A stretch of DNA of 64,000 bases from a virus. Each line of letters starts with the position of its first letter. The first letter of the stretch is position 1. The notes beneath the pieces were generated by a model. That model ran no database searches. It was not told where the DNA came from and worked only from the letters and a program-made list of their open reading frames with translations. The DNA lies in IMG/VR virus record IMGVR_UViG_3300045988_160113, positions 71,791 through 135,790 of that record. The stretch is one strand, 5' to 3'. Positions 1 through 63,660 of this stretch are shown piece after piece. The translations under genes and the position numbers were made by a program.

Positions 1-556
1 ATAGTTTTTATTTAGGTCATATGTCATTACATCCCAATCTTGAGTTAGTTCAAGAAGTCTTGCGGGATTGGCCCCACGGAAACCGTATAATTCTTGGCGT
101 GGGTCAAAGAATATCATATAATTCTTAGGCTGGATCATATCTAACATAAAATATAATTCATTTTCTGTTGAATCCTGTCCTTCATCCAAAAGCAAATAGT
201 CAACTTCTTTTATTGCCCATGGACGCTCTTTTATAATTTCAAAGAATTCATCAAAGTTTTCTTCTTGAATTAGTTTAGAAGTATCATAACCAGACATAAG
301 TAATAGACGATTACAATAAGCATGAACAGTTCCAATAAATAAGGATGGATAGTCTCCAATTCTTTTTCTCATTTCAATCGCGGCAGCATTAGTAAAAGTA
401 ATACATACTACTTTTGATGGATCAGCACCATGTTCAAGGATATATTTTAGTCGTGCTGTAAGGCAGTGAGTTTTTCCTACAGCGACAGAGGACATTACTA
501 ATACTTTTGATTCTTGTGTTTCTACTATTACTTTCTGCAAATCATTTAGTTCCATA
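1..556 (-). CDS. SF1 (UvrD/PcrA-like) helicase, N-terminal part; gene continues past window start
   Basis: Own reverse translation from ATG at 556: MELNDLQKVIVETQESKVLVMSSVAVGKTHCLTARL...EVDYLLLDEGQDST. Has Walker A GKT and DEGQD motif II. Not in ORF track because no stop in window. Confidence 0.6.
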
Positions 557-592
557 ATTCAACTCCTATCTTCTCTTTCCACTATTTATTTT

Positions 593-621
593 ATTATATT
601 TCAATTTTCTCAAAAATTCAA
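593..621 (-). promoter_or_regulatory. sigma70-type promoter for helicase operon
   Basis: Minus strand reads TTGAAT-17 bp-TATAAT, followed by an AGTGGAAAGAG leader. Confidence 0.6.
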
Positions 622-624
622 ATT

Positions 625-1719
625 TTAGCCGCTTGCCTTCATGTTGAATCCATATTTATCCGCTCCATAGAATTCAATCCAGAATTTTTCGCGCGCGGAT
701 AGGTTTTCCTTTTCTACTCTTTCAATTACTTCAAAAGTAAAATTATCAATTCCTTGTTTCTCCATTGCGTCATGAATTGCTGCCCATGAAATAGTTCCAG
801 TATGAAAAGCAGATTTACAATGCTGTTGCCAACGAGATTTGATATCGGTTGATTTGCCAATATAAATACGTTCGTCTGGCCCAGTAATTTTGTAAATACC
901 ACTAAAAGATTCATTATTTAGCACACGCTTCTCCATTTCTTTCACTGGTCGCGCAATATAAAGGTCATAAATAAGTTTATATAATGAGGTAGTATCATTT
1001 AGACGAGGCATGATAGACAATAATATTTGAATATCTTCTTTTGCGCCATCTGATAATTGGATTTTATAAAATTGACTTTGCTCTTCAACCGCACGCTTGC
1101 GAAGAATTGCTTCATTTATAAGTCTTTGTTTTTCTTTGAAGTCATTTACTTCGGATTGTAGACTTTCCTTCTGCGCGCATAATGAAAGAATATCATCATT
1201 TATAACTGCTTTTATTTCTTCTCCATACTCATTGATATTCTTTGCCATTTGGTCTTTAGAAGCCTGGACTTTCTCTTCCTCCGCGCGCAGAGTAGATTGA
1301 AGTTTTGTAATTGCTTCAACTTTATGGTGCTGAAGTTGTTCATCTACTAAAGCAATACGATGATTTTTATAATCATTTAGTCTAATTTCATATGCGTTTT
1401 TCAAATTCTCAGTATGTTGGTATAGAATATCTTGTTGCTTCAAAGCATCAAGTCTTGCTTCATCTATTTGATTTCTAATTGTATTTAGAGAACGCTCTTG
1501 CGCGGCAATAGAACTATTATAATTTTGTTGTAATTGCTTTATTTCTATGTCATACTTTTCTTTTTCTAATCTATATTCTTCTTGTATTCTTCTTCTTTCT
1601 TCTACATATTCACTAAAGTCTCTTTCAGTTAACTTTAGATATTTATTCTTCAAATATTTTGATAATAAAATTATTGCTATTATTGCTACTAATATAATTA
1701 TACCATATATCATAACCAC
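625..1719 (-). CDS. Membrane-anchored coiled-coil protein with C-terminal GIY-YIG nuclease domain
   Basis: N-terminal hydrophobic helix and a long E/K/Q-rich region. C-terminus reads GIYKITGPDERIYIGKSTDIKSRWQQH...EKFWIEFYG. Confidence 0.6.
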   Translation of the reverse strand: MVMIYGIIILVAIIAIILLSKYLKNKYLKLTERDFSEYVEERRRIQEEYRLEKEKYDIEIKQLQQNYNSSIAAQERSLNTIRNQIDEARLDALKQQDILYQHTENLKNAYEIRLNDYKNHRIALVDEQLQHHKVEAITKLQSTLRAEEEKVQASKDQMAKNINEYGEEIKAVINDDILSLCAQKESLQSEVNDFKEKQRLINEAILRKRAVEEQSQFYKIQLSDGAKEDIQILLSIMPRLNDTTSLYKLIYDLYIARPVKEMEKRVLNNESFSGIYKITGPDERIYIGKSTDIKSRWQQHCKSAFHTGTISWAAIHDAMEKQGIDNFTFEVIERVEKENLSAREKFWIEFYGADKYGFNMKASG

Positions 1720-1757
1720 TCCTCCATAGTTATTTTATCCCTATAATTATATTATAG

Positions 1758-1793
1758 CATAAAAAGAAGAGAGTGTCAAATTCTGACACTCTC
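1758..1793 (-). terminator. Rho-independent terminator (minus strand)
   Basis: 10-bp stem gagagtgtca/tgacactctc (1769-1793), followed on the minus strand by a T-run. Confidence 0.6.
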
Positions 1794-1802
1794 AACTTTT
1801 GA

Positions 1803-2363
1803 TTAGAGCTTCCCATCCCTAGAAAGCGTATTATAATATCCAATGATAAAAGCATATTCAACATCCATTTGTCCATTTGTCAAGTTATTAGCCTTCAACA
1901 ACTCATTATATTTTTTGTGAATGTCAAATATATGATTGAAATCATCTAAAGTGGGGACTGTAACACCATGACGGCATTGTGTGGCGAAGTGGAGAATTTC
2001 ATATCTAATGCGGTCAATTTCATTCTTGTCAACTTTTTCATTGAGAAGTTTTATCATATCATTTTGCGCGCGGTTTGTGTTTTCAATATCATCAAGTCGT
2101 TCATGGATATCATCAATTTTACTAAAAATTTCCCCATAAATTTCTTCTTGATGAATTTTGAATTGTTCAATCAATGTGTCTGCGGTTTGTTTAGAAATTT
2201 CTTGAATTCTATCTTTCCTTTTTTGTTCTCGCTTGGCGACACGTTTTTTGCCCGCGGTCGTAAATGTTTCCCAAAATTTGACTATTCCTAAAATTGCGCC
2301 GAGAAATCCCGCAATAGCAATGACTCCGCCAGAGAGATACTGTAAGTATTGTAAAATCATCAC
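1803..2363 (-). CDS. Hypothetical membrane-anchored protein
   Basis: ORF track. N-terminal TM segment, then a charged helical region. Confidence 0.5.
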   Translation of the reverse strand: MMILQYLQYLSGGVIAIAGFLGAILGIVKFWETFTTAGKKRVAKREQKRKDRIQEISKQTADTLIEQFKIHQEEIYGEIFSKIDDIHERLDDIENTNRAQNDMIKLLNEKVDKNEIDRIRYEILHFATQCRHGVTVPTLDDFNHIFDIHKKYNELLKANNLTNGQMDVEYAFIIGYYNTLSRDGKL

Positions 2364-2424: not shown

Positions 2425-2805
2425 TCAAGGCGGAGTCAAATAATCATTATGAAATTTTGATTTTACGAGATATTGTGGTCGAAATAAATCGTTGAAATTA
2501 TAAATTGTAGAAAGTTCCCAATAAGGAATACGGTAGAGTTTGAAATTGCGCGCGAGACAATAAGAATTTTTCTTACGGTCTCGTTCACGCGCGGCAAGAT
2601 AACCTTTATGGTTTGTAAATTGAGAGATTTGTTGATAATGCTGAATACCATCATATTCAATATGAATTTGATAATCTGGCAAATAAAAATCAAATCTCAA
2701 TGGGACATTTTTCTTTCCATGTAAATCTGGATAAGTTTTTTCTCTTTCAAACTTCACGTGCGCTGCGCGCAGAAGAGAAACAATGTAATCTTCTCCTTTA
2801 CTCAT
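2425..2805 (-). CDS. Restriction-endonuclease-fold (PD-(D/E)XK-like) protein
   Basis: Start moved to MSKGEDY (ATGAGTAA overlap with ligase stop). Motif PLRFDFYL...IEYDGIQHY is shared with the C-terminus of 3913-4794. Confidence 0.45.
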   Translation of the reverse strand: MSKGEDYIVSLLRAAHVKFEREKTYPDLHGKKNVPLRFDFYLPDYQIHIEYDGIQHYQQISQFTNHKGYLAARERDRKKNSYCLARNFKLYRIPYWELSTIYNFNDLFRPQYLVKSKFHNDYLTPP

Positions 2806-3916
2806 TGGCAATCTGAGAAAATTCGCACTCGCGTGCAGTCTTATCGGTTCGCCACTCAATAATCTTTGCATGACGGAACTTGAATGTATCCGGTTCAATT
2901 TCCATAGCATTGATAGACACTACACGGTCAGTCCAGTTCTCTGGATTTTTGACAATACCTTCCTTGACTTCTTCAGTAATACCAGAAATCCAACCTACGG
3001 GATAAACTTCATCGTTTCGATAGACACCAATTTCTACCGCGCTTGCCCAGTCATTATAATATCCCTTTGAAATTGGGTAATAAGGTTCACCAAGACTATA
3101 CTGTTTATAGTAATCACCATAAACTTTTTCGCCTGTCTGCTCATTTAGCCAATATTTCCAATCTTCAATATGGTCACCATTATAAGCGCGTGTAGAAGGC
3201 TTATAACGACCAGTCAGGAAACAATCAATGTAATTATCAAGTTCTTTCTTGATTTTGAGAGTTTTCTGTGCTGTGCGTTTACCTGGTTCAGCATGAGAAT
3301 CAGCACGTGTAATAACAATACCTTCGCCACCAGAAGACATAACTCTCATAAGTTCATTCCAAAGAGCATCCCCTTCATAATACTTAGCAAAGCGAATATA
3401 AGAAGCATCCTGATACTTTTCGGCAATTTTAGCAAGAAGGTCAAAGCGTTCGCGCGCAGTGAGAGAAAGACAAGAATGACCATTATATGCCCATACGTCG
3501 AAGACATAATACCATAAGTATCCACTCTTTTCTTGACGAGCAATGGCTTTATCTTTCAGGCAACCCATAAAAGTCGTAACTTTTCGACTTGCACTATCTT
3601 TTTCAAGATGAATTTCACCAAGGAGGCAAGTACCATTAGGAAGAGCATTAAAGAAAGGTCTAAGTTGAGGAACCCATTCAAGTTTATCTGTCATCTCACC
3701 TTTGACATTTTCATTGCGCGCGCAAAGAAATAGATTACCATCTTCATCCTTTGTAAGCCTATAGTATACTCCATCGCGTTTCTCACTACCAAGATAATCT
3801 CCAGAATAGATACGATTATGAATGTCAATTTTTACATTGGCTTTATTTTTTGCGAAAGACCAGTACTTCTCTGCTGGGAGATGATAAAAATCAATTCCAT
3901 CAATATATCCATTCAT
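2798..3916 (-). CDS. ATP-dependent DNA ligase
   Basis: Motif I SEKRDGVYYRL (KxDG), LLGEIHLE, GGEGIVITR, LKIKK. Confidence 0.7.
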   Translation of the reverse strand: MNGYIDGIDFYHLPAEKYWSFAKNKANVKIDIHNRIYSGDYLGSEKRDGVYYRLTKDEDGNLFLCARNENVKGEMTDKLEWVPQLRPFFNALPNGTCLLGEIHLEKDSASRKVTTFMGCLKDKAIARQEKSGYLWYYVFDVWAYNGHSCLSLTARERFDLLAKIAEKYQDASYIRFAKYYEGDALWNELMRVMSSGGEGIVITRADSHAEPGKRTAQKTLKIKKELDNYIDCFLTGRYKPSTRAYNGDHIEDWKYWLNEQTGEKVYGDYYKQYSLGEPYYPISKGYYNDWASAVEIGVYRNDEVYPVGWISGITEEVKEGIVKNPENWTDRVVSINAMEIEPDTFKFRHAKIIEWRTDKTARECEFSQIANE

Positions 3917-4857: not shown

Positions 4858-4936
4858 ATTTCTTTTATATGAAAATGCTATACTTTTCTTTCAAAATATT
4901 TACTTCAAAATAGAATAGAATTATAGGAGGCGCGCA

Positions 4937-5380: not shown

Positions 5381-5910
5381 TCTGCACAACGAATAAGCCA
5401 ATTTACAAAGGCATTCGCTTCATCTTGAAGATTATCAAGAGTAGAATTATTATTTACAAAATAATGATAAGGATAATTTTCAACACCATCATCTGAATCA
5501 TTACCCATTATTTTATTTGCCTCATCACGACGAACAAAAACTGCTGTTGCTCCATATTTATAAACATAATCATGGATTTCTTTTGGTTCGCGTACCATAA
5601 TAAGAATATATGTTGGATATGGAGTATCATTGAGACGGTCATATCTATTGGCTACATCTTCAACATTTTTCATAGTCAAATTTCCCCAAGGAGAATTTAC
5701 TAATACTTTCTTCATATCGCTCAAAAACTTGCGCGCTTCTGGTGTTTTTTTACCATCCCATCCTGCGCGCGCAACAAGGTCTTTTACAAGACTTACTGAG
5801 GAATAAACATATGCTCTTCGACCACGAATACCGAGTTCTTTTGTTGTGTAATCAGCAAAACTCGATTTTCCTGACCTGGCATGACCATTAACAATTACAT
5901 ACTTAACCAT
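5377..5910 (-). CDS. P-loop (d)NMP-kinase-like protein
   Basis: GHARSGKSS Walker A. Start moved to the second ATG for better RBS spacing. Confidence 0.55.
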   Translation of the reverse strand: MVKYVIVNGHARSGKSSFADYTTKELGIRGRRAYVYSSVSLVKDLVARAGWDGKKTPEARKFLSDMKKVLVNSPWGNLTMKNVEDVANRYDRLNDTPYPTYILIMVREPKEIHDYVYKYGATAVFVRRDEANKIMGNDSDDGVENYPYHYFVNNNSTLDNLQDEANAFVNWLIRCAE

Positions 5911-6876: not shown

Positions 6877-6960
6877 ATTTTGACTTTTGAAGAAAAATAT
6901 ATTATTTCGCGCGGGCGCGCATTTTATTATAATGTATAAATAATGGATGGCTGTACAAAT

Positions 6961-7016: not shown

Positions 7017-7313
7017 ATGGCTAAGTTGTCTGACGAAAAAATTGCTGAAATCCAAAAGCGATATGCTGAATGTGGTGTCTATGCTCAAGTTGCCAGAGAA
7101 CTTGGTGTATCTCCTGCTACCGTCAAGAAGTATGTTTCTTCCTCTGACTCTGCGCGCAGTTCAAAAGTTAGTGTTCCTATTACCAAATTTGAGAGTGAAC
7201 CTCTTCCTATTGAACAAATTGTGTCCCCTTTGACTCATCAAGGTTGGCTAGACTGGTGTTCATTTACTGACGATGATTTGAAAAGTGTTGAAAGTCTGAA
7301 AGGAGAATTATAA
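7017..7313 (+). CDS. HTH DNA-binding protein
   Basis: GVYAQVARELGVSPATVKKYV helix-turn-helix. Confidence 0.55.
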   Translation: MAKLSDEKIAEIQKRYAECGVYAQVARELGVSPATVKKYVSSSDSARSSKVSVPITKFESEPLPIEQIVSPLTHQGWLDWCSFTDDDLKSVESLKGEL

Positions 7314-7603
7314 TGAAGTGGTTTACACTTGAAGAAACTCCATATCATAATAACGAATGGACTATTCGACCTTCTAATAAATTTTATGAAACTTTTAGTG
7401 GTATTCATGGTTCTTATCTTGTTTATCCTGCGCGCTTGTGTGGATTTACATATGGAGACTGGTGTAGATACTGCCGAGATAATTATCAAGCAAAACTCTA
7501 TGGTGGTTCTAAATATATTGTTGTAACTTTTCCTAACAAGGAAGATGCAAATACTTTAGCAAAATTTTTAGATGACAGAATGAATAAAATTGTAAAGGAG
7601 TAA
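7313..7603 (+). CDS. Hypothetical protein
   Basis: ORF track. ATGA-type overlap with the upstream gene. Confidence 0.5.
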   Translation: MKWFTLEETPYHNNEWTIRPSNKFYETFSGIHGSYLVYPARLCGFTYGDWCRYCRDNYQAKLYGGSKYIVVTFPNKEDANTLAKFLDDRMNKIVKE

Positions 7604-7608
7604 TTGAA

Positions 7609-8097
7609 ATGAAGGAAAAGAAGATTTATAAGATTGAGAATGAGGCTGCAAAGAAGAATCCTAAGCGCAATTACATTGAGTATTATGTGAACGAAGAGAA
7701 GAAGATTGTGACCGCAGTTTTGACTGGCGTGCGTCAGGAAATGTCGAATATGTTTGAAAAGAAGTTTGCTAATGCTGGTTTTTCTGCGCGCCGCGATACT
7801 TGGTTTCTTGGTGGAATCGAAGCACTTTCTGATGTTATGAAGTTTATTCCTGATAAGATTGTAGCAAGTGCTACTTGCGCGCCAGAAGATGAATTTGATG
7901 TAGAGTTTGGTTGTAGTCTTGCTCGTATGCGTCTAATTGAAAAGCTTTATACGTATCGTGAGAGAGTTTCTTATGACCTGGCAGTAAAAGTTGGCATGAT
8001 TCAGTGCGCTCTTATGGATTACAGTGAATTCTGCGGTATCAAGATTGAAAACCTTATGGAAGATATTGATGTTACTCTTTCCGAGCATAACTGGTAA
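7609..8097 (+). CDS. Hypothetical protein
   Basis: ORF track; RBS aaggag. Confidence 0.5.
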   Translation: MKEKKIYKIENEAAKKNPKRNYIEYYVNEEKKIVTAVLTGVRQEMSNMFEKKFANAGFSARRDTWFLGGIEALSDVMKFIPDKIVASATCAPEDEFDVEFGCSLARMRLIEKLYTYRERVSYDLAVKVGMIQCALMDYSEFCGIKIENLMEDIDVTLSEHNW

Positions 8098-8164: not shown

Positions 8165-8485
8165 ATGGAAATGGAAAAGATGGCTATCAAGGCTCAGGCA
8201 GAAACCCGCGCAAATCTCTATCGTATTGTTACTGATGCTCTTGGTAGCGAAAATTTTGCTACTCAGCCAATCAAGGGTGGCCGTCTGATTGATCTCAACA
8301 ATGGTTATTATGCTAAGGTTTCTATTAGTATTATTGACCCCAATAATGTTGAACCTGCGATTCAGGCATATGCCGACCAGATGCGTGTGAATGCTGCTCG
8401 TGCTGCTGAGCGCGCAGAAAAGGAAGCAGAAAAGGCTCGTAAGGCCGCAGAGCGTGCGGCTAAGCGTGGAGAGAAGACCGAGTAA
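8165..8485 (+). CDS. Hypothetical protein with A/E/K-rich tail
   Basis: ORF track; RBS aaggaga. Confidence 0.5.
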   Translation: MEMEKMAIKAQAETRANLYRIVTDALGSENFATQPIKGGRLIDLNNGYYAKVSISIIDPNNVEPAIQAYADQMRVNAARAAERAEKEAEKARKAAERAAKRGEKTE

Positions 8486-8551: not shown

Positions 8552-8896
8552 ATGGAGAATATTATCGAGTTAGAAGTTGTAAATAAAAGTATTAGCACTA
8601 AATTTAGACAGAATAACTATGTTAGTGCTGGTGATGTGTATAAATTCAATTTTTCAAATGCTTGGGAGAAATTTTTAGGAGAGAATGCGCGCCTTCAAGC
8701 AACTTATTTGATTGAGAATGGAAGACAAGATATTTATTACTTTGACCCACTAAAAGATTGTAAAAGTAACGCACCTGAGGAATTATTTAGAGAAGAAAAT
8801 GAAGGAAAAACTGTTTATCTTGGTGTTTGTGGTGTGCATGAAGACGGCACTATTTACCCCAGTGTTTATTATCGTTTAGGCGCTATCCGTCTATAA
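8552..8896 (+). CDS. Fibre/baseplate N-terminal-domain paralogue
   Basis: Resembles the first ~110 aa of 8981-11554 (ME..IEL.V..K...; ...VY.G..G......Y.RLG). Confidence 0.5.
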   Translation: MENIIELEVVNKSISTKFRQNNYVSAGDVYKFNFSNAWEKFLGENARLQATYLIENGRQDIYYFDPLKDCKSNAPEELFREENEGKTVYLGVCGVHEDGTIYPSVYYRLGAIRL

Positions 8897-8980: not shown

Positions 8981-11554
8981 ATGGAAAGCACGATTGAACT
9001 TTCAGTTCTAAAAAAAGAAATCCATTTTGTAAAGAAAGACAGTCTCACAACTGGACAACAAAGAAACTCCATGAAAATATCTTTCAATGGAAAAGAATGG
9101 AATGGACTAACTAAGTATGGTGTGTTCAAAGTTGAAGATACTGTCAAAGATGTCTTGATTGCTAACTCTGATATAGAGATACCTGCCGAAGTTTGCACCC
9201 TTGACAATCTTGGTAAAGTGGTTTATTTTGGTATCAAAGGAACTTATACAGAGACTATTAGTGGAACGGAAACGGAAACTGTTTATACTACTCCTTATTT
9301 TAGACTTGGAGTACTTGAACGTGGTACAGAAACTTCTGGAAGTATACCAGAATATCCAACACAAAATGCCATTGATGCGGCAATTGAAAATGCGCGTAGA
9401 TGGGCAGTTGGCCCAAGTTCTACAGATAAAGTTCCTACCGATACCAATAATGCGAAATATTGGAGTGACCAAGCAAAAGTAAATGTTGAAAATGTAAATG
9501 AGTATGCTAATAAAGCAAAGGCAGAAGCAGACCGCGCAGAAACTGCGGCAAATACCGCTGTAGAAAGTGTAAAAGGTTCTGTTGAAGCCGCTGCGAAGAG
9601 CGCCCAAGAAGCGGGACAATATGCTGAGAATGCTAAGACCGCTGTAAGAGAGTATCCTCGTATTGATAGTCATGGTCACTGGGAAAGATACGACCCTGAG
9701 AGTGGTAAATGGGTTGATACTGGCGCACTAGCAGAGTTCAAGATTAGGAAAACATATAGTACTATTGCTGAAATGAATGAACATTGGAGTGATAGTGATG
9801 TTTTTGTAAATGATTTTGTAATGATTGCTGGTGAAGTTGAACCGGATAATGGCCAACTGTATGTCAAACTTGCTGATAGTAATGCTAAATATCAGTATAT
9901 TGGTGACCTTAGTGGCGCTCAAGGTATCAAGGGTGAGAGTGCTTATGATATTGCAGTAGCGAAAAAGCAGTATGAAGGCACAGAAGATGATTTTGCGAAG
10001 TTCTTGGGAGAAGCAGTAAATAATGAACCTAAGAGACAAGAAGCAGAGACTGCTCGCAATAATGCCGAAAAAAATCGTAATGATGCTGAGTCTCTTCGCG
10101 CGCAGAATGAAACGCAACGAAAGACTGATGAATCTACTCGTCTATCAAATGAGACTGCGCGCATAGCAAATGAAAAAACTCGCGGTGAAAATGAAGATAG
10201 TAGAAAAGCAAATGAAGCAGACCGTGTAGAAAAAGAGACTGCTCGTGTCAATGCGGAAAAAAATCGTAATGATGCTGAGTCTCTTCGTGTGCAGAATGAA
10301 ACACAACGAAAGACTGATGAAACTACTCGTTCTACAAATGAGACTGCCCGTGGTAATGCTGAGAAAGCTCGTAACGAAGCAGAAACTGCTCGTAATAATG
10401 CTGAATCTTCTCGCGCGACTGCCGAAACGAATCGTGATAAAGCAGAGATTACTCGCGCGCAAAACGAAGAAAAGCGAGTCAATGCTGAGTCTTCTCGTGT
10501 GACTGCTGAAGGAACTCGCGCGACCAATGAACAAACACGAATTGACACAGAAAAAGCTCGCAATGAAGCAGAGAGTAAGCGTGTGATTGCTGAAACTTCT
10601 CGTATTGAATATGAGAAAACGCGCGAATCAAATGAAAGTGCACGTGCAAAAGCAGAAATTTCACGTGCGAATGCTGAAACTAACCGTAATAATGCTGAGA
10701 CTGCTCGTAACAAAGCAGAAACCGCCCGTGATTCTGCCGAGTCTCTCCGCGCGCAGAATGAAATTCAACGTCAGTCAAATGAGACTGCGCGCGAAATATG
10801 GGAAGACTATAACCAAGATAAAACTTATTACAAGGGAAATAAGGTAAGTCTCAATGGTAATAGTTATGTTTGTGTAGTCGAATCTACTACCAATCATCCT
10901 GGTCAATCTAATGATTGGTTACTTATTGCTCAAAAGGGCGATGGACTAGTAATCAAAGATAAATATACTACAATTGAGGAACTTCGCGCGGCTAATCCTA
11001 ATCATACTTATACTTACCAAGTTGAGCAACCTAATGGTGAACTTTATATTTACTCTGATATTGCCGGTGATTGGGTATCTATTGGTGCTATCCAAGGACC
11101 GAAAGGTGAAACTGGTGATAAGGGCGATAAAGGCGACCAAGGCATTCAAGGCAAGAAAGGTGATAAAGGTGATGCCTTTACTTATGCTGATTTTACTCCT
11201 GACCAACTCGCGGCGCTCAAGGGAGAAAAAGGTGATAAAGGTGACGCTTTTACTTATAATGACTTTACTCCTGAGCAACTTGCTTCTTTGAAAGGCGAAA
11301 AAGGCGACAAGGGTGACCCTGGTTCTTATACTGCTGGTACTGGTATTAAAATTGCCAATGGTGTTATTAGTGCGACCGCGGAAGTATATAAAGCGGGCGA
11401 CGGCATTAGTATCACTAATGGATTGATTAGTGCTTTACTTGGGGCTGGCCTCAAATTTGATACTGATAAAAAAATTACTCTTGATGAAACTACTTTTACG
11501 GAATATACAGATGATGAAATTACCTCGATTTATAATTCTGTTGAAATTTCTTGA
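8981..11554 (+). CDS. Tail fibre with ~37 xxExxRx heptads and collagen-like G-X-Y repeats
   Basis: NAEKNRN/DAESLRA/QNETQRK... heptad array, GPKGETGDKGDKGDQGIQGKKGDKGD and 2x FTY.DFTP.QLA.LKGEKGDKGD. Confidence 0.8.
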   Translation: MESTIELSVLKKEIHFVKKDSLTTGQQRNSMKISFNGKEWNGLTKYGVFKVEDTVKDVLIANSDIEIPAEVCTLDNLGKVVYFGIKGTYTETISGTETETVYTTPYFRLGVLERGTETSGSIPEYPTQNAIDAAIENARRWAVGPSSTDKVPTDTNNAKYWSDQAKVNVENVNEYANKAKAEADRAETAANTAVESVKGSVEAAAKSAQEAGQYAENAKTAVREYPRIDSHGHWERYDPESGKWVDTGALAEFKIRKTYSTIAEMNEHWSDSDVFVNDFVMIAGEVEPDNGQLYVKLADSNAKYQYIGDLSGAQGIKGESAYDIAVAKKQYEGTEDDFAKFLGEAVNNEPKRQEAETARNNAEKNRNDAESLRAQNETQRKTDESTRLSNETARIANEKTRGENEDSRKANEADRVEKETARVNAEKNRNDAESLRVQNETQRKTDETTRSTNETARGNAEKARNEAETARNNAESSRATAETNRDKAEITRAQNEEKRVNAESSRVTAEGTRATNEQTRIDTEKARNEAESKRVIAETSRIEYEKTRESNESARAKAEISRANAETNRNNAETARNKAETARDSAESLRAQNEIQRQSNETAREIWEDYNQDKTYYKGNKVSLNGNSYVCVVESTTNHPGQSNDWLLIAQKGDGLVIKDKYTTIEELRAANPNHTYTYQVEQPNGELYIYSDIAGDWVSIGAIQGPKGETGDKGDKGDQGIQGKKGDKGDAFTYADFTPDQLAALKGEKGDKGDAFTYNDFTPEQLASLKGEKGDKGDPGSYTAGTGIKIANGVISATAEVYKAGDGISITNGLISALLGAGLKFDTDKKITLDETTFTEYTDDEITSIYNSVEIS
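10030..10800 (+). repeat. 21-bp (heptad) coding repeat array with an internal 81-bp duplication
   Basis: 10061-10141 vs 10250-10330 differ at 5 positions; offset is 189 bp. Confidence 0.8.
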
Positions 11555-11636: not shown

Positions 11637-11909
11637 ATGGCTCATATCCTGAGAAAAATTGGAAATGCTTCTAATGTATCTGTTTATAGATATGAAGCAG
11701 ATACTGAAGCAGATATGCGCGCCATTGATGTCTCTATGGCTCCGATGGGCAGTCGCTGTTATATTATTGACACTGGTGATACTTATGCTCTAAACAGCAA
11801 AAAGGAATGGAAATCTGTTCCGAAAGGTTCTGGTGGCGATATTATCTATGATGGTGGCTCAGACAGTGGTTCTTCCGGTGACATTATTTACGATGGCGGT
11901 ACTACGTGA
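11637..11909 (+). CDS. Hypothetical structural protein
   Basis: RBS aaggagg. C-terminal GGDIIYDGG duplicated. Confidence 0.5.
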   Translation: MAHILRKIGNASNVSVYRYEADTEADMRAIDVSMAPMGSRCYIIDTGDTYALNSKKEWKSVPKGSGGDIIYDGGSDSGSSGDIIYDGGTT

Positions 11910-20292: not shown

Positions 20293-20302
20293 GGAGGCGC
20301 GC

Positions 20303-47577: not shown

Positions 47578-47744
47578 ATGTATTTTTACTTCGAGTTATA
47601 TTGACAATTCTTATCGGTTCTTTTTGGTATGAAGCCAAAAGAATTTTTGAATTAGAGAAGAGAGAAAATGGCGCGCGAATATTTATGTATTGTTATACGG
47701 TGCTGTTGATTTTGGTACTGTGTTTTATTTGGTTTTTGATGTGA
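47574..47744 (+). CDS. Small membrane protein (56 aa)
   Basis: Own translation MNVFLLRVILTILIGSFWYEAKR...; ATGA overlap. Confidence 0.35.
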   Translation: MNVFLLRVILTILIGSFWYEAKRIFELEKRENGARIFMYCYTVLLILVLCFIWFLM

Positions 47745-55021: not shown

Positions 55022-55424
55022 ATCGCAACGTGCTTATTTTCGTGCTGCGCGCGCAGTGAGTGAATTGTCAGATTATCCGCGACATCATCTTGGTTGTGTG
55101 ATTGTTGATAAACATAGAATTGTATCGAGTGGATATAACAGTAATACAAAATGTGATTCTATTCAGGCAAAAATGGATATTGAAAGACACGGAGTATTCT
55201 GTCCTGGTAAAGTTCACGCTGAATGCGCGGCGTTGATGCCGATTTTGAAGAATAAGATAAGTTTGAGTAATGCTGAACTTTATGTGTATAGAGAACATAA
55301 AAATGGAAGTTTGGCTATGAGTAGACCTTGTCCTAGTTGTATGAAGTTGATTAGAAAATGCGGAATTAGATATATCAATTATACAACTGAAGATGGATAT
55401 GCGTTTGAGACATTGGAGGTTTGA
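55011..55424 (+). CDS. dCMP/cytidine deaminase (zinc-dependent)
   Basis: HLGCVIV..., HAECAAL, PCPSCMKLI. Confidence 0.75.
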   Translation: MLTKSQRAYFRAARAVSELSDYPRHHLGCVIVDKHRIVSSGYNSNTKCDSIQAKMDIERHGVFCPGKVHAECAALMPILKNKISLSNAELYVYREHKNGSLAMSRPCPSCMKLIRKCGIRYINYTTEDGYAFETLEV

Positions 55425-55636: not shown

Positions 55637-55700
55637 TTTAGAGTTGCTAAAGTTTTGTTCTGCGCGCGGAGTGAAAGTTTAGCAACTTTCTTTTTATAAT

Positions 55701-56371: not shown

Positions 56372-56543
56372 TAATTATCGTCCCACTATTGATGAGGCAC
56401 TTGAATCAGTTGAGAAGTTAGATGATATGATTGATATGTTTGCTTATAGTGGCGAGCTTAGTTCTGATGAAGTAGATGAAGCGTGTATGGCATTGACCAC
56501 CATCAAACTCTATATTCAAAGTTCTGTTCCGCGCGCAGAATGA
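56364..56543 (+). CDS. Hypothetical protein
   Basis: Start MSNNYRPT. Confidence 0.4.
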   Translation: MSNNYRPTIDEALESVEKLDDMIDMFAYSGELSSDEVDEACMALTTIKLYIQSSVPRAE

Positions 56544-56834: not shown

Positions 56835-57297
56835 ACTTGGTAAGATTTTTATTGTTAAATATCGCGCGGGCGAATATAGCAAAGAAGTTTATCCTGTCGT
56901 ATATGAGAATCAGGAGCGATATGTATGTAAGGTTCCTGGCTGCCACGAAATTAGAGAATTCCTCAAAGATAACTCACGCTATGGAGTCATTACTGTTGAA
57001 GAATTTTATCGAGAAGTTCAGATGGGTCTGAATCCTTCCCATGCTTATAAAGTGTTTGTTAGTAATCAGGATAAAATTGATTTCGAAAAGTATCGTACAG
57101 TAAGTCCTAATGAAATCAATTTGAAGAAACTTGAAGCTAAATTAGATTACGACGAAAAGCGTATTGAGATTTGGAAGAATGAAATCGAAGATACCAAAAA
57201 GCGTATTAATGATATGAAAGTTACCAATAGGCAAACCAAAGCTAAAATTGCCCAACTAAAAGCGCTGATTGAAAAGGAGAAAAATGATAATGAATAA
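56824..57297 (+). CDS. Hypothetical protein with C-terminal coiled coil
   Basis: ORF track. Confidence 0.45.
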   Translation: MMSKLGKIFIVKYRAGEYSKEVYPVVYENQERYVCKVPGCHEIREFLKDNSRYGVITVEEFYREVQMGLNPSHAYKVFVSNQDKIDFEKYRTVSPNEINLKKLEAKLDYDEKRIEIWKNEIEDTKKRINDMKVTNRQTKAKIAQLKALIEKEKNDNE

Positions 57298-57628
57298 TTT
57301 TGATGTTTTTATTGGCCCGCGCGGATGTGGTGTTTCTTCTCAGATTGCTGAAGTAGCAGTTGAAAATGATGGAGTGATTGTTGTCCCTACTCTTGTAGCT
57401 AAAAGAGAAATGACCAGTAAAGTTCTTGATGCTTTAGCTAATTCAATGGAAGAGCATCACGTTAATGTATTTACAATTTATGAACTTATTAATGGTAGCG
57501 GAAGAGGCATTGATTATAATCGTCCTATTTATATTGATGACTTTGACAAGTGTTTTATTGAATTGCTTTCCATTCATCATATTGGGAATAAAGTAGTATG
57601 TTATGGTACTACAATGGAGGATATTTAA
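57284..57628 (+). CDS. Hypothetical protein
   Basis: Start MIMNNFDVF after aaggag. Confidence 0.45.
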   Translation: MIMNNFDVFIGPRGCGVSSQIAEVAVENDGVIVVPTLVAKREMTSKVLDALANSMEEHHVNVFTIYELINGSGRGIDYNRPIYIDDFDKCFIELLSIHHIGNKVVCYGTTMEDI

Positions 57629-57629: not shown

Positions 57630-57980
57630 ATGAATAACTGTGAGTACTACCATGAATACAAAACCATCAAAGGATGGGAAAATTCAGAGCGTCCTATTTA
57701 TGGTAAAGTAGGAGTTTGCTATGGGCAAAAAGAGACACCGGAGTGCTATTATAATGGTTGTCCTGATGAATGTGATTTACTCCGCGCGCGGAATGAAAGA
57801 GAAGCAAGTAAGAAAGTAACATTCAAAACTTACTTTGACCTAATTGTGAATGGAACACCTGAACAGCTAGCATTGTTTGTGGCGAAACTTATTGAAAAGT
57901 CAAAGTCATATCCTAAACTTGGAGATTACAATGTTATTCTTGATTCGTTAAATAGTAAGGTAGATAAAGATGAAGAATAG
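57630..57980 (+). CDS. Hypothetical protein
   Basis: Start MNNCEYYHEY after ggagga. Confidence 0.45.
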   Translation: MNNCEYYHEYKTIKGWENSERPIYGKVGVCYGQKETPECYYNGCPDECDLLRARNEREASKKVTFKTYFDLIVNGTPEQLALFVAKLIEKSKSYPKLGDYNVILDSLNSKVDKDEE

Positions 57981-58155
57981 AGAATATTATGGACTTGTCA
58001 TTTCATTATTCCTTTGTATCCTCTGTATTTTCTGCGCGCATAATGAGTTTGTAAATGATAGACTTTTTGAATGCGGTCTATTTGGTTTTGCAGCAATAAT
58101 CAATGGTTGCTCCGCAGTTATGGAGTGGATTAACAATGGAAACAAAAGACTATAA
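57970..58155 (+). CDS. Small membrane protein
   Basis: ORF track. Confidence 0.4.
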   Translation: MKNREYYGLVISLFLCILCIFCAHNEFVNDRLFECGLFGFAAIINGCSAVMEWINNGNKRL

Positions 58156-59311: not shown

Positions 59312-59359
59312 CTGCGCGCAGACTGAATTGTAGTGATATAGCAGTTTGGTCTGCGCGCA
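59312..59359 (+). other. Inverted repeat whose arms each contain GCGCGC
   Basis: ctgcgcgcagac ... gtctgcgcgca. Loop is about 25 nt. Confidence 0.55.
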
Positions 59360-60273: not shown

Positions 60274-60811
60274 CTATATTTGTATTGATGGTGTGAAGGT
60301 TTTACTAAATGATTCACAGATTTCTGAACTGCGCGCGACTTTGGAGAAGAGAGAAGCCGACAAGAATTCTCCCTTTAAGCGTCAGAAGTATGGTGATGAT
60401 TATTATTGTATCACCAGTGATGGAGAAGTAAATATTTTTCCCGATTTTGCTCTTGGTTGTGATTCGATTCATCATAATATTGCTAATTATTGTACTGATA
60501 AAGAACTTCTCAAGCAGCGCGCACTTGAAGAAATTCTTGCGCGTCGGCTCTGGCGTTACTCTATGGAACATGGTGGAGATAAGATTGATTGGAGTGACGA
60601 TAGGGATAAGTTCGCAATTTATTATGATGCTGAGAATGGTTCGTTTTATATTACTAATAATGTAGATTGTCAAATCACCAGCACAGCCTATTTTGTAGAC
60701 CGCGAAACCGCTATAAATGCCATCAAAGAAATTGCTGAGCCGTTTATGAAAGAGTATCCTGGCTTCAAAAGTTATAGAACTTGTTATGCACATGACTCGA
60801 AAGGAGAATAA
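60266..60811 (+). CDS. Hypothetical protein (paralogue)
   Basis: MDNYICIDGVKVLL...YCTDKELLKQRALEEILARRLWRYS. Confidence 0.5.
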   Translation: MDNYICIDGVKVLLNDSQISELRATLEKREADKNSPFKRQKYGDDYYCITSDGEVNIFPDFALGCDSIHHNIANYCTDKELLKQRALEEILARRLWRYSMEHGGDKIDWSDDRDKFAIYYDAENGSFYITNNVDCQITSTAYFVDRETAINAIKEIAEPFMKEYPGFKSYRTCYAHDSKGE

Positions 60812-60812
60812 T

Positions 60813-61458: not shown

Positions 61459-61517
61459 CTCTATGTAGGTTGATAGAAAGACAGTAGTTCGGTCTGCGCG
61501 CGAAGTGAGAGTAAAAT

Positions 61518-61546: not shown

Positions 61547-61577
61547 ATATTTATAAAGATAAGAAAGGAGTCTATTC

Positions 61578-62078
61578 ATGACTACCGAACAAAAGAATCG
61601 CATTGCTGAAATTGATTCCCAAATTGCTTCTCTTATGAAAGAAAAAGAAACTATCAATCCTTACTCTAATCTCAAATCATTCTCAAACAAAAATTTTGGT
61701 GAAGCATGGAGTGAACCTCACATTCTTGCGCGCTGCCCATCTTTTACTAAAGTAGATAGTAAAGGTTATGACTTCATTAGTGATGGGCTTGGCAAAGTAG
61801 AGGTAAAGTCTTGCCGTTTGCCTGCCACGACAGTAAATCAATGCCATCCGAATGATTGTGATTATTTTCTTTTTGCTCTTTATGATTGTGATGAATGTGA
61901 AGACCACCTTTATCTCGTCCCAAGTAAGAACTTTATGGAGTTTTCTCCTACTGTTCAACATGATAGAGGTGAGTCTGGTTGTTACTCTATGTCTCTAAAG
62001 ACAAAGAGACGTCAAGAACTTTTGAAGCAATATAAAGTAAGTTACAATGAACTTGAACTGCGCGCAGCGAATAACTAA
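61578..62078 (+). CDS. Putative PD-(D/E)XK restriction-endonuclease-like protein
   Basis: GYDFISDGLGKVEVKSC (D...ExK). Lies directly upstream of the MTase. Confidence 0.4.
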   Translation: MTTEQKNRIAEIDSQIASLMKEKETINPYSNLKSFSNKNFGEAWSEPHILARCPSFTKVDSKGYDFISDGLGKVEVKSCRLPATTVNQCHPNDCDYFLFALYDCDECEDHLYLVPSKNFMEFSPTVQHDRGESGCYSMSLKTKRRQELLKQYKVSYNELELRAANN

Positions 62079-62092
62079 ATGGAGTGATATTT

Positions 62093-62899
62093 ATGGCAAA
62101 ACTAGCATATGATAAATATTATACAGAAAGTGATTTAGCAAAACATTGTGTAGAAAAAACTTTTGAAATTATTGGCTCTAATTGGGAGAGAGTAATTGAA
62201 CCAAGTGTGGGTGCTGGTGCTTTTCTTCCATTTCTTCCAGAGAATACGATTTACTATGACTTAGTCCCAGATGAGGACTGTCCTGGAACTATTGAAATGG
62301 ATTGGCGGGAAGTCAAACTTCCTTATATCAAGCAGTCATTAGTAATTGGTAATCCTCCTTTTGGGCGCGCGAATAAATTGTCTGTTCAATTTATTAAGAA
62401 AGCTATGGAATTGGGCGACTATTGTGCTTTTATTCAACCTATTAGTCAGTTGAATCAAAATCGAACTATGAAAGATACTGAACTATTATATAGTGAAGAC
62501 CTTGGTACTATTGCTTATAGTGGTCGAAAGGTTCACTGTTGTTTCAATGTGTATCATAAGTGTATTGGTGGACATAAACAAGACTTTAATATTCCAGGAA
62601 TTATTGAATGCCGTCACATTTTCAGAAGTGGAAAGTATAAACATGATGATAGTATTTTGAATGATAAATGGGATTTTAGAGTTGCGGCTTGGGGTAGTAT
62701 ACGGTTATTAGGAGAAGATGAGTTTTGTCCCAATGAAGTAGTGTTCAAATGTGAAGAGAATATAAAGGATTGGCTTGGGCAAAAGTTAAGAGAATGTGAT
62801 TATAGCAAAGTAGTAAATAGTGTGACTACGCCGAATTTACCTGCTTGGAGATTGAGAAAGTGGTTGAAAGAGGAGTACGAAAAGGAGAGGACTGAATAA
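62093..62899 (+). CDS. N6-adenine DNA methyltransferase (gamma-type order)
   Basis: Motif I IEPSVGAGAFL, motif IV VIGNPPFGRANK. Confidence 0.75.
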   Translation: MAKLAYDKYYTESDLAKHCVEKTFEIIGSNWERVIEPSVGAGAFLPFLPENTIYYDLVPDEDCPGTIEMDWREVKLPYIKQSLVIGNPPFGRANKLSVQFIKKAMELGDYCAFIQPISQLNQNRTMKDTELLYSEDLGTIAYSGRKVHCCFNVYHKCIGGHKQDFNIPGIIECRHIFRSGKYKHDDSILNDKWDFRVAAWGSIRLLGEDEFCPNEVVFKCEENIKDWLGQKLRECDYSKVVNSVTTPNLPAWRLRKWLKEEYEKERTE

Positions 62900-62910
62900 G
62901 TCCTCTTTTT
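62886..62910 (+). terminator. Rho-independent terminator
   Basis: agaggac-tgaataa-gtcctct followed by TTTT. Confidence 0.6.
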
Positions 62911-63030
62911 GTTTGGTAGGAGTTTGCTCTGCGCGCAGAATTGAGAAAGAGATGGTTGAAAATTTGAAAATTGAAATTTGGGATAGATAGTGGAATTTTT
63001 TTGTTGGAGGAAGGAAAAAAGAAAAGCTAC

Positions 63031-63194
63031 TTAAATAAAAACAAGAGAGAAAATAATATAGAAATAATTATTTTATTATTTTATATAGTTATATTATATA
63101 AATAATTATAAAGATAATAATAAAATAATTATATTAGGGCCAGGTAATAAAAATATTATCTGGTTTTTATTATAGAAATAATAAAATAATATAA
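63031..63194. repeat. Almost pure A/T block with AAATAATTAT word repeats
   Basis: Read directly. Contains one hairpin, ccaggtaata-aaaa-tattatctgg (about 63140-63163). Confidence 0.7.
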
Positions 63195-63660
63195 GGGTAG
63201 TAGGGGTAGTATATAGTAATATAATAATATAGTAAAATGGTCTGCGCGCAGAGTGAAAGAAAATAATTATAAAAATAATTATTAGGGGTAGGGGGTAGTA
63301 TTTAGGGTAGGGGTAGTAGAAAATAAATAAGAAAATTTTGGGAAAATTGAAATTTTAGAATTTTGGAGAAAGGGGAGAGGGGGTCCCGTGCGCGAAGCGC
63401 ACTGGGGGAGAGGGGCGAAGCCCCTCTCCAGGGAGAGTGAGAGGAGGGTAGTAGGGGTAGGTGTAGGGGTAGTAGGGGTAACAAGTTAGGTAGTGTAGGA
63501 GTAGGGGTAGTGTAGCTGGTGTGGGGGTAATGTAGATGTAGTCTAGTAGCTGAGCTAGTAGTCGGACTAGTAGCCGGACTAGTAGCCTCTATATAGGGGT
63601 AGTAGGGGAATTAGTAAGGGGTTGGTGTAGGCTGGTGTGGGTTGATGTAGGGGTAGGTGT
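63195..63660 (+). repeat. Strand-biased GGGGTAG(TAG) repeat region (G-quadruplex-prone)
   Basis: At least 15 GGG(G)TAG units, all on the + strand. Long stretches lack C. Confidence 0.75.
63388..63429. other. Two adjacent GAA-triloop hairpins, each containing GCGAAGC
   Basis: gtgcgc-GAA-gcgcac (63388-63402) and ggagaggggc-GAA-gcccctctcc (63407-63429). Confidence 0.75.

Follow-up and report, generated by a model that had tools for sequence, protein, structure and literature searches.

The GCGCGC Sites and Their Genomic Setting

We analyzed a window (the whole stretch of DNA studied here) of 64,000 nt from the ~136-kb genome of an uncultured, metagenome-derived gut phage (IMG/VR record IMGVR_UViG_3300045988_160113, positions 71,791 to 135,790), in which the palindrome GCGCGC recurs dozens of times; together with adjoining sequence of the same species, the portion of the genome examined amounts to ~80 kb. 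This is a large, lytic-type phage. In the window, the - strand carries the genes between 0.6 and 6.8 kb and the + strand nearly all of those that follow (open reading frames, ORFs, were called crudely, as the longest non-overlapping ones). Besides tail fibre and endolysin genes, the window encodes an ATP-dependent DNA ligase, RNase H, ClpP, PhoH, a dCMP deaminase, a T4-type RNA ligase plus polynucleotide kinase, several GIY-YIG nucleases (at least six in the phage as a whole), one HNH nuclease, eight tRNAs, and a reverse transcriptase with Mtd-like targets. The window is 37.1% GC (G 21.5%, C 15.6%); a preliminary description of the same DNA, made from the sequence alone, had put G and C at 17-18% each, which was off, although its expectation of about two GCGCGC sites by chance holds (2.4).

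Exact counting gives 83 overlapping matches to GCGCGC, in 77 distinct runs of alternating G and C; with the CGCGCG-only runs included, the window holds 94 such runs of at least 6 nt. The over-representation reported in the preliminary description, which estimated 75-80 sites, is therefore real. All of its example positions are correct except 29672, which is 29673; its list lacked 22091, 36207 and the second, overlapping matches held by GCGCGCGC runs (e.g., 3718, 5767, and 23540). The full 10-mer CTGCGCGCAG, for which at least 12 copies had been claimed, occurs exactly 12 times, and GCGCGCGC occurs six times. The sites are as follows (strand “.” throughout):

690..697, tttCGCGCGCGgat, in ORF
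1173..1178, tctGCGCGCata, in ORF
1282..1288, ctcCGCGCGCaga, in ORF
2066..2072, tttGCGCGCGgtt, in ORF
2548..2554, attGCGCGCGaga, in ORF
2588..2593, tcaCGCGCGgca, in ORF
2765..2770, gctGCGCGCaga, intergenic; full 10-mer
3451..3457, gttCGCGCGCagt, in ORF
3716..3723, attGCGCGCGCaaa, in ORF
4930..4935, gagGCGCGCaat, intergenic
5731..5736, cttGCGCGCttc, in ORF
5765..5772, cctGCGCGCGCaac, in ORF
6908..6913, tttCGCGCGggc, intergenic, divergent promoter region
6915..6920, cggGCGCGCatt, intergenic, divergent promoter region
7152..7157, tctGCGCGCagt, in ORF; full 10-mer
7430..7435, cctGCGCGCttg, in ORF
7786..7791, tctGCGCGCcgc, in ORF
7877..7882, cttGCGCGCcag, in ORF
8410..8415, tgaGCGCGCaga, in ORF
8687..8692, aatGCGCGCctt, in ORF
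10097..10103, cttCGCGCGCaga, in ORF, tail fibre repeat
10157..10162, actGCGCGCata, in ORF
10412..10417, tctCGCGCGact, in ORF
10454..10460, actCGCGCGCaaa, in ORF
10517..10522, actCGCGCGacc, in ORF
10620..10625, aaaCGCGCGaat, in ORF
10748..10754, ctcCGCGCGCaga, in ORF, tail fibre repeat
10787..10793, actGCGCGCGaaa, in ORF
10985..10990, cttCGCGCGgct, in ORF
11717..11722, tatGCGCGCcat, in ORF
16285..16291, tctGCGCGCGaag, in ORF
16359..16364, tatCGCGCGtgc, in ORF
18994..18999, attGCGCGCctg, in ORF
19390..19395, tatGCGCGCcta, in ORF
20297..20302, gagGCGCGCatg, in ORF
21827..21832, gccCGCGCGgtg, in ORF, GC-rich island
22091..22097, gcaGCGCGCGgca, in ORF, GC-rich island
23538..23545, actGCGCGCGCtgg, in ORF
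23731..23736, aatGCGCGCcca, in ORF
24612..24617, tctGCGCGCagt, in ORF; full 10-mer
24654..24659, actCGCGCGgca, in ORF
25911..25917, gttGCGCGCGgat, in ORF
27132..27138, tctGCGCGCGgaa, in ORF
29673..29678, tctGCGCGCaga, intergenic; perfect 12-mer
33947..33952, actGCGCGCacc, in ORF
35964..35969, gccCGCGCGgtt, in weak ORF
36207..36212, tctGCGCGCaga, intergenic; perfect 14-mer CTCTGCGCGCAGAG
38921..38926, tctGCGCGCcgc, intergenic, within terminator-like hairpin
39134..39141, tctGCGCGCGCaag, in ORF; column conserved in all 10 taxa compared
39329..39334, tggGCGCGCagc, in ORF
39513..39519, ggaCGCGCGCtgg, in ORF
40563..40568, tttGCGCGCagt, in ORF
40734..40740, agaCGCGCGCtga, in ORF
40770..40775, actGCGCGCaga, in ORF; full 10-mer
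41060..41065, gctCGCGCGagt, in ORF
41670..41675, tgtCGCGCGatg, in ORF
42026..42031, ttgGCGCGCaaa, in ORF
42132..42138, ctcCGCGCGCtgg, in ORF
42380..42385, cctGCGCGCtga, in ORF
42529..42534, ctcCGCGCGgtg, in ORF
42594..42599, gatGCGCGCaag, in ORF
43039..43045, tttCGCGCGCtga, in ORF
43282..43289, gacCGCGCGCGaga, in ORF
43825..43830, tatCGCGCGgca, in ORF
44478..44484, tctGCGCGCGgag, in ORF
44665..44671, ggaCGCGCGCaga, in ORF
45110..45116, acgGCGCGCGtag, in ORF
46234..46239, tctGCGCGCagt, in ORF; full 10-mer
46714..46720, actGCGCGCGaag, in ORF
47281..47286, caaGCGCGCata, in ORF
47671..47677, atgGCGCGCGaat, in ORF
48158..48163, aagGCGCGCatg, in ORF
48488..48495, ctcCGCGCGCGgaa, in ORF
48522..48527, taaGCGCGCacc, in ORF
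48941..48946, cctGCGCGCaga, in ORF; full 10-mer
49034..49041, actGCGCGCGCagc, in ORF
51726..51731, caaCGCGCGaga, in weak ORF
55047..55054, gctGCGCGCGCagt, in ORF, dCMP deaminase
55662..55668, tctGCGCGCGgag, intergenic; apex of long terminator-like hairpin (-22 kcal/mol); 33 nt upstream of strong promoter-like site
56530..56536, ttcCGCGCGCaga, intergenic, just 5′ of ribosome-binding site
56863..56868, tatCGCGCGggc, in ORF
57318..57323, gccCGCGCGgat, in ORF
57783..57790, ctcCGCGCGCGgaa, in ORF
58034..58039, tctGCGCGCata, in small ORF
59314..59319, tctGCGCGCaga, perfect 12-mer; doubtful 50-aa ORF only
59353..59358, tctGCGCGCatt, doubtful 50-aa ORF; 21 nt upstream of strong promoter-like site
60331..60337, actGCGCGCGact, in ORF
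60517..60522, gcaGCGCGCact, in ORF
61496..61502, tctGCGCGCGaag, intergenic; 16 nt upstream of promoter-like site
61728..61733, cttGCGCGCtgc, in ORF
62060..62065, actGCGCGCagc, in ORF; full 10-mer
62365..62371, tggGCGCGCGaat, in ORF, at NPPF motif of methyltransferase-like gene
62931..62936, tctGCGCGCaga, intergenic; perfect 12-mer, left edge of AT-rich repeat region
63244..63249, tctGCGCGCaga, intergenic; perfect 12-mer, right edge of AT-rich stretch

Excess over Composition and Codon Usage

The 83 matches compare with 2.4, 3.3, and 21 expected under Markov models of order 0, 1, and 2. GCGCGC is the most over-represented hexamer of the window (z = 44), followed by CGCGCG (57 copies), and its excess over chance in this phage and its relatives is about 25-35-fold. 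The codon-preserving shuffle proposed earlier as a check does not reproduce the count: with amino acids and codon usage kept, shuffling synonymous codons yields 8.5 ± 3.1 sites (genome-wide) or 15.3 ± 3.7 (within genes), and shuffling codon order yields 7.0 on average, versus 72 observed in ORFs; the largest count in 500 shuffles was 27. The preliminary description had the motif encode mostly Ala-Arg or Arg-Ala, with the codons GCG and CGC; GCG-CGC makes up 30% of the Ala-Arg pairs and CGC-GCG 33% of the Arg-Ala pairs, where codon usage predicts 3.9% (GCT-CGT is the second commonest Ala-Arg codon pair). The two dipeptides are themselves 1.5-1.6 times over-represented, so that the DNA motif shapes protein sequence. 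No other dinucleotide repeat is enriched in the window, and an origin by slippage or as a microsatellite is not supported. The single-mismatch neighbours of GCGCGC, including those with T for C, are not depleted (GTGCGC, 11 vs. 5.9 expected; GCGTGC, 10 vs. 5.9; GCGCGT, 13 vs. 4.6), which argues against a signature of very-short-patch (VSP) repair.

Most matches (72 of 83, 87%) lie inside ORFs, in all frames and on both coding strands as had been claimed (20/22/16 by frame in + strand ORFs, 5/4/5 in - strand ORFs), and 11 are non-coding, versus 0.19 expected (a 58-fold excess). Their mean density in the window is 1.3 per kb, distributed by region as follows:

0-11.8 kb, 2.2 sites per kb
11.8-38.9 kb (tail fibres, retroelement, lysins, tRNAs, homing nucleases), 0.52 sites per kb
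38.9-49.1 kb, 2.65 sites per kb
49.1-55.0 kb, 0 sites per kb
55.0-63.3 kb, 1.9 sites per kb

The sites show no tie to gene starts. Ten out of 33 strong promoter-like sites have the motif within 120 nt upstream (4.8 expected); since this association is weak and most promoters lack the motif, we rejected the possibility that it is a promoter element.

Core Length, Flanks, and Symmetry

Set against expectation for each length class, the maximal alternating G/C runs give these ratios:

3-4 nt, 0.9-1.2 times (at expectation)
5 nt, 2-2.6 times enriched
6 nt, 11 times (CGCGCG) and 18 times (GCGCGC) enriched
7 nt, 33-40 times enriched
8 nt, 72 times enriched
over 8 nt, none in the window

The shortest runs (3-4 nt) show no excess, so that neither GCGC nor CGCG is enriched by itself, and tetramer enrichment was rejected as the basis of the excess: what is enriched is the alternation of G and C over 6-8 nt. 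When 219 sites from nine loci were pooled, the core proved to be embedded in a symmetric, degenerate consensus of ~20 bp, TTYnnTCT-GCGCGC-AGAnnRAA. Positions -3 to -1 prefer T/C/T and +1 to +3 prefer A/G/A (about 50-58% each), ±4 and 5 show no preference, ±6 to 8 show weaker complementary ones, and the symmetry is of the Watson-Crick type, on DNA. The near absence of G at -2 and of C at +2 explains why the runs end at 8 nt. The flanks are chosen at the synonymous level as well, given the amino acids (5′ CT, 20 vs. 8.5; 3′ AG, 13 vs. 7.2). Flank specificity ends at about ±8 bp, and GC content further out shows no 10-11-bp phasing.

There are five perfect 12-mers, TCTGCGCGCAGA, at 29673, 36207, 59314, 62931, and 63244; all five lie outside credible genes (in intergenic DNA or in a doubtful 50-aa ORF), and 5 out of the 12 10-mers are non-coding (p = 0.01). 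The ideal site is thus a palindrome of at least 12 bp, of which coding DNA carries weaker versions. In the early-gene region (55600-63300) we also observed a subfamily with a longer consensus of ~26 nt, AGTTTGnTCTGCGCGCAGARTGAAAG, with members at 55662, 56531, 57784, 58034, 59314, 61496, 62931, and 63244, and also at 29673. These lie in spacers just 5′ of strong TTGAAA-17-TATAAT promoters or of ribosome-binding sites; inside genes, the DNA of this subfamily gives rise to recurrent R-A-Q-N-E peptides.

Conservation of the Sites

In comparison with a 90%-identical relative (L002), third codon positions inside the sites differ in 12.8% of cases; among third positions elsewhere the figure is 37.5% at CpG (p = 0.0007) and 22.9% at other G/C. 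Silent positions in the sites thus change 2-3 times more slowly than comparable ones. Five further comparisons with relatives rank the classes of third positions in broadly the same way, and in the smallest samples (L008 and L010) the in-site positions are far below other CpG positions and about level with other G/C third positions. We then considered only those positions at which the amino acids permit the motif in both genomes. Where the window is occupied, the relative has the motif with a probability of 0.57-1.0, compared with 0-0.16 where it is not, several of the underlying counts being small and overlapping 6-mers in one run not being independent; this contrast persists in relatives whose identity at four-fold sites is only 0.34-0.48, close to saturation. 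For example, in the gene for a 549-aa protein the same alignment columns carry the run in up to 10 out of 10 taxa, down to 38% protein identity.

Turnover of the sites does occur, at a rate far below what their silent positions would permit, and the same pattern was the argument of Xu et al. (PMC5861425) for selection on the cyanobacterial palindrome HIP1 (see below). Occurrence in all frames and in non-coding DNA, slow silent positions and persistent orthologous sites together show that the DNA motif itself is under purifying selection; with the synonymous flank bias, they bear out the suggestion of the preliminary description that selection acts at the DNA level.

Two further observations come from these alignments. 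In that between the window and L002 (28.4-50.1 kb), third-position CpG outside the motif is the fastest-changing class, mostly by transitions, which hints at CpG hypermutability in these phages. Identity to L002 swings between ~70% and 99% in blocks, indicating mosaic recombination.

Distribution of the Trait among Relatives and the Probable Host

GCGCGC is also enriched in the rest of the examined genome, outside the window. All relatives found through the 549-aa protein share the trait down to 38% identity (GC 36-45%); it is missing at 26-28% identity in this protein. Using a conserved methyltransferase-like protein, we obtained 33 IMG/VR loci, and in 12 of them (GC 35-38%) GCGCGC and CGCGCG are enriched 10-40 times, ranking as the two leading hexamers in most; the signal is weaker in L027, with 10 GCGCGC versus 0.9 expected, yet not as its top hexamer. 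The trait-bearing loci include L027-L034, L037, L038, L045, and L046; L025 and L042-L044 are among the loci free of the trait. Four loci (L035, L036, L039, and L040; GC 41-42%) have no GCGCGC enrichment; they are 88% identical to a trait-bearing cluster and nested among trait-bearing lineages in a tree built from this one protein by the unweighted pair group method with arithmetic mean (UPGMA). The more distant groups among the 33 loci show no GCGCGC enrichment, and neither do the controls, T5 and two gut phages. The trait is thus clade-specific and evolutionarily labile, and its occurrence coincides with low GC and with a very strong avoidance of other palindromes.

We also looked for replacement motifs. 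The four trait-free loci carry GGCCGC in excess (35 per 20 kb vs. 5.2 expected), with a 2:1 strand bias and with 14 out of 20 copies, counted by hand, in the frame NNG-GCC-GCN; since this motif is asymmetric and strongly frame-biased, we do not equate it with the palindrome, and a switch of motif was rejected even though the excess is real. The same loci carry a repeated 10-mer, TCAACGACTA, and GATATAGTCT. In the distant relatives L006 and L017 a candidate alternate palindrome proved to be just local GC-rich segments, none of them iterated.

No cultured relative or close phage was found in the INPHARED phage collection, the GTDB genomes held no match to the endolysin or the 549-aa protein, and one IMG/VR search with the 549-aa protein, aimed at the host, gave no match. 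The promoters (TTGAAA-17-TATAAT with TG extensions) and the strong AGGAGG ribosome-binding sites suggest, as far as sequence signals go, a low-GC Gram-positive-like host.

Avoidance of Other Palindromes and the Methyltransferase-Like Gene

The preliminary description was right to contrast the motif with the usual avoidance of palindromes by phages, and the contrast is stronger than it stated. Observed-to-expected ratios are 0.07 for GATC (16 copies vs. about 210-235 expected), 0.11 for TTAA, 0.26 for CTAG, 0.32 for TGCA, and 0.35 for AGCT, and eleven 6-bp palindromes are wholly missing (e.g., CTGCAG, GGATCC, AGATCT, and TGATCA). Such extreme avoidance points to heavy Type II restriction pressure from the host. 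GCGCGC is itself identical to the 6-bp recognition sequence of Type II enzymes such as BssHII; phages normally purge such sites, whereas here the sequence is enriched ~25 times, with preferred flanks that a Type II enzyme would not require.

The adenine-type methyltransferase mentioned in the preliminary description corresponds to the ORF at 62093-62899 (+ strand), which contains DKYYT, EPSAGxG, and NPPF motifs, typical of adenine (gamma-class-like) methyltransferases judging by sequence. It has no sequence match in Pfam or PDB; its 588 close homologues lie in large phage contigs (52-82% identity, in hundreds of contigs of 100-180 kb), so it appears to belong to an unannotated, widespread family of phage orphan methyltransferases. 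The gene is equally present in relatives without GCGCGC excess, which rules it out as the cause of the trait.

Interpretation of the Iterated Palindrome

[quoted passage not shown] Like the sites described here, HIPs are GC-rich palindromes of 6-8 nt (over-represented 15-300 times) with about one copy per kb, are found in genes in all frames and in non-coding DNA, are too frequent for codon choice or peptide content to account for, persist between genomes more than neutrality predicts and have a consensus that exceeds the core; related lineages can lack the palindrome, and HIP function is debated. Unlike HIP1, the phage motif has the sequence GCGCGC and no GATC core (GATC being almost missing from the phage), it is carried by a clade of gut-metagenome phages and not by a cellular chromosome, and no cognate methyltransferase was found in the ~80 kb scanned, the only methyltransferase-like gene there being of the adenine type. 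HIP1-type palindromes are also distributed with a periodicity of 10-90 kb, a scale to be set against the ~136 kb of the whole phage genome.

Our best reading of the sites is a lineage-specific highly iterated palindrome, a phage counterpart of HIP1, made up of recognition sites for a two-fold-symmetric protein, and we give this reading a probability of roughly 45%. Each copy would be a site on double-stranded DNA for a dimeric protein, one oligonucleotide form of the core with its flanks being TTCAATCTGCGCGCAGATTGAA. Purifying selection would keep the copies in place, at 1.3-2.6 per kb over most of the chromosome; perfect copies would stand in non-coding DNA, and weaker, core-only copies would be fitted into genes through GCG and CGC codons, to the extent of favouring Ala-Arg and Arg-Ala dipeptides. 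By analogy with HIP1, Chi, and DNA uptake sequences, the array would most likely direct a DNA transaction to phage DNA, for which modification, repair or recombination, nuclease protection, and chromosome organisation are candidates. That a protein reads the site, that it does so as a dimer, and what follows from the reading are all inferred. The absence of the trait from close relatives makes a core phage gene an unlikely reader; a host factor or an accessory gene of the phage is more probable. It is possible, if doubtful, that the palindrome is a virus-borne system in the full sense, a conserved tag whose dedicated symmetric reader distinguishes phage from host DNA; such a tag could serve protection, recombination-dependent replication or organisation of the phage chromosome, and could be gained and lost between close relatives.

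Several observations weigh against recognition by a dedicated symmetric protein. About 40% of the sites differ between 90%-identical genomes, mostly by CpG transitions; conservation of the whole hexamer (57%) is not above that of average hexamers (62%), and the close relative has lost several intergenic sites. Site density is uneven, falling to 0.52 per kb at 11.8-38.9 kb and to zero at 49.1-55.0 kb. The outer flanks carry little information, and the presence of left and right flanks is statistically independent (both at 12 sites, ~11 expected), a result that in itself lends no support to cooperative contacts by a dimer. Within the ~80 kb scanned we found neither the reader protein nor a C5-methyltransferase, Vsr or Z-alpha domain, and the motif may have originated in a host-wide mutational or repair bias.

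The most serious rival, though an unlikely one, is a Chi-like host signal: the motif or its GCGCG half would halt the degradation of linear DNA by host AddAB, RexAB or RecBCD, and a palindrome, offering both orientations, would protect a linear genome entered from either end. The Chi word of Lactococcus and Streptococcus, GCGCGTG, shares GCGCG with the motif (that of B. subtilis is AGCGG), both are short GC-rich words in AT-rich DNA that act or could act as frequent, lineage- or host-specific tags, and the promoter and ribosome-binding signals of the phage resemble those of a low-GC Gram-positive host. The trait varies between closely related phages, as a host-set signal would, its density is ~1 per kb, and its flanks behave independently, like two overlapping oriented sites. 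However, known Chi sites are asymmetric, strand-skewed words of 5-8 nt that depend on orientation, whereas the phage motif is palindromic with symmetric flanks; one-orientation runs of 5 nt are enriched just 2-2.6 times, where those of 6-8 nt reach 11-72 times, orientation is biased no more than G/C skew predicts, and GCGCGTG itself has just 5 copies. The excess of Chi in bacteria is roughly few-fold, and the 25-35-fold excess and long-term positional conservation of the phage motif are far above this. DNA uptake sequences and uptake signal sequences (DUS/USS) are likewise genome-wide short tags at about one per kb, but they are asymmetric and serve transformation.

A by-product of methylation and biased repair is a rather improbable explanation: a cytosine methyltransferase for GCGCGC, encoded by host or phage and combined with Vsr-type repair of T:G or with methyl-directed mismatch repair, would continually create and restore sites without function. 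This drive and the topological, nicking, and RNA-level roles discussed next each run against one or more direct tests. A methyltransferase-plus-repair drive is one model for HIP1, and alternate HIPs in cyanobacteria are always accompanied by a cognate methyltransferase; in our phages the differences at sites between relatives are almost all C/T or G/A at CpG, non-site CpG third positions change fastest, and site-restoring repair would also let existing sites persist. Against this, GTGCGC, GCGTGC, and GCGCGT are all above expectation instead of being depleted, there is no C5-methyltransferase or Vsr in ~80 kb, the motif fills just about a third of the Ala-Arg and Arg-Ala pairs with an occupancy that remains position-specific across saturated divergence, and preferences extending to ±8 are unexpected for the 6-bp site of a methyltransferase.

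We give little credence to a structural or topological role, in which (CG)3-4 tracts would be B-Z transition points, GC clamps or sites of the phage gyrase. In favour of such a role, the phage has genes for GyrB and for a GyrA that includes the C-terminal wrapping domain, enrichment holds for the GCGCGC and the CGCGCG register alike, an origin-like repeat region has a perfect copy on either side of its AT-rich stretch, and gyrase cleavage cores are degenerate palindromes, the commonest of which in S. pneumoniae is GATC, lacking in this phage. Yet for gyrase wrapping, in addition to the symmetric core that is present, GC/AT arms phased at about 10.5 bp are expected out to ±60 bp, and no arms with 10-11-bp phasing were found beyond ±8. 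A generic alternating tract does not predict sequence-specific flanks with G excluded at -2, and one run over 8 nt was seen where ~11 would be expected by a rough extrapolation of run lengths; the Z-DNA signal suggested in the preliminary description therefore fits poorly. Tracts of 6-8 bp are too short to form Z-DNA from supercoiling alone, and no Z-alpha domain was found in ~80 kb. Repetitive extragenic palindromes and bacterial interspersed mosaic elements (REP/BIME) are palindromic and bind gyrase, but they are extragenic hairpin-formers of at least 35 nt, unlike the phage sites, which are 87% genic and, with one exception, form no hairpin centred on the core.

It is very improbable that the sites are nicking sites as in T5, or cleavage sites of the phage GIY-YIG or HNH nucleases. 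The analogy was drawn in the preliminary description: the major T5 nicks fall at R/GCGCRGG, which contains GCGC, T5 resembles our phage in being large, lytic and AT-rich, with many tRNAs and homing endonucleases, and our phage has a DNA ligase in addition to its at least six GIY-YIG nucleases and one HNH nuclease. The analogy fails in that known nick sites are asymmetric, confined to one strand and number 4-14 per genome, whereas the phage motif occurs at 1.3 per kb; T5 has no genome-wide excess of GCGCGC or GCGC (one GCGCGC in a 50-kb stretch, vs. 3 expected), and nicking both strands ~170 times per genome would fragment it. A packaging signal, also suggested earlier, would not need 1-2 copies per kb.

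We find it just as hard to credit an RNA-level element, in which self-complementary transcripts would act through hairpins, site-site pairing or nuclease processing. Nearly all sites are transcribed, the site at 55662 sits at the apex of a -22 kcal/mol hairpin, and the consensus of the early-region subfamily is extended and partly G-U-compatible; but the predicted fold centres a hairpin (at least 5 pairs, + strand) on the core at just 1 of 77 sites, that at 55662, which largely refutes local RNA hairpins. The flanks match by Watson-Crick symmetry at the DNA level and are interrupted at ±4 and ±5, which leaves no continuous helix, and sites also occur between divergent genes and after terminators. 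Finally, a trivial effect of composition (dinucleotide, codon or amino-acid bias, or internal gene repeats) is refuted and has next to no probability: although an order-4 Markov model, which contains the motif's own 5-mers, expects 80 copies and a few sites fall in tail-fibre repeats, models of order 0-2 and three kinds of codon shuffle fall short by 3- to 35-fold, the excess in non-coding DNA is 58-fold, no other dinucleotide repeat is over-represented, and related phages of similar GC content lack the trait.

Other Features of the Window and Adjoining Sequence

Other features that we identified in the window and the adjoining sequence are:

8981-11554, tail fibre gene
11920-13404, Mtd_N-domain proteins
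16983-19403, complete diversity-generating retroelement
16983-17732, DUF6273 protein with the variable repeat (17583-17694) at its C-terminus
18216-18327, template repeat
18471-19403, reverse transcriptase
20000-22400, GC-rich island
22903-24677, two endolysins
35396-35523, + strand, RAGATH-33 RNA
41442-42635 and 48689-49192, T4-type RNA ligase 1 and polynucleotide kinase (Pnkp-like)
62900-64000 and beyond (L020 10808-12340), non-coding repeat-rich region
L022 13362-21071, left of the window in the same species, UvrD-like helicase, GyrB, and GyrA with C-terminal beta-pinwheel domain

Within the aligned core of the retroelement's repeats, all differences between template and variable repeat are at template adenines. 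The GC-rich island (56% GC vs. 37% for the genome) carries the genes for a DUF6273 “Hoc-like” protein and for a carbohydrate-binding protein with CBM_5_12, and is probably a recent acquisition. The match to RAGATH-33 (Rfam) is full-length and exceeds the gathering score (130 bits); it sits in a 2.5-kb stretch (34.1-36.6 kb) without convincing + strand ORFs. In relatives a metallophosphatase is found near the RNA ligase and kinase genes, and the three form a tRNA-repair set, which probably counters host anticodon nucleases. A GIY-YIG homing endonuclease gene interrupts or separates the gyrase genes.

The repeat-rich region amounts to ~1.5 kb and lies at a divergence point of transcription. It contains (T)AGGGGTAG arrays, 12-nt GGACTAGTAGCC tandem repeats, and an 80-nt tandem pair (63820-63979), and its AT-rich stretch at 63035-63340 is bracketed by two perfect TCTGCGCGCAGA copies; it looks like a replication origin or a terminal-repeat boundary.

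Implications for the Phage Clade

Hyper-abundant, selected palindromes have been known from cyanobacterial chromosomes, and a different sequence is now found in this way in a clade of abundant gut phages, so the phenomenon is not confined to cyanobacteria or to cells. The motif runs counter to the rule that phages purge palindromes, a rule that this genome otherwise obeys to an extreme. It provides a cheap marker for the clade in metagenomes and predicts unusual behaviour in digestion with BssHII, HhaI, and BstUI. Because dozens of related genomes with and without the tag are available, the reader gene or host factor could come to light by phylogenetic profiling. If a virus-borne tag with its own reader is indeed involved, this would be the first virus-borne highly iterated palindrome system, and the small, rewritable genome of a phage would then offer an experimental route into the 30-year-old question of HIP function.

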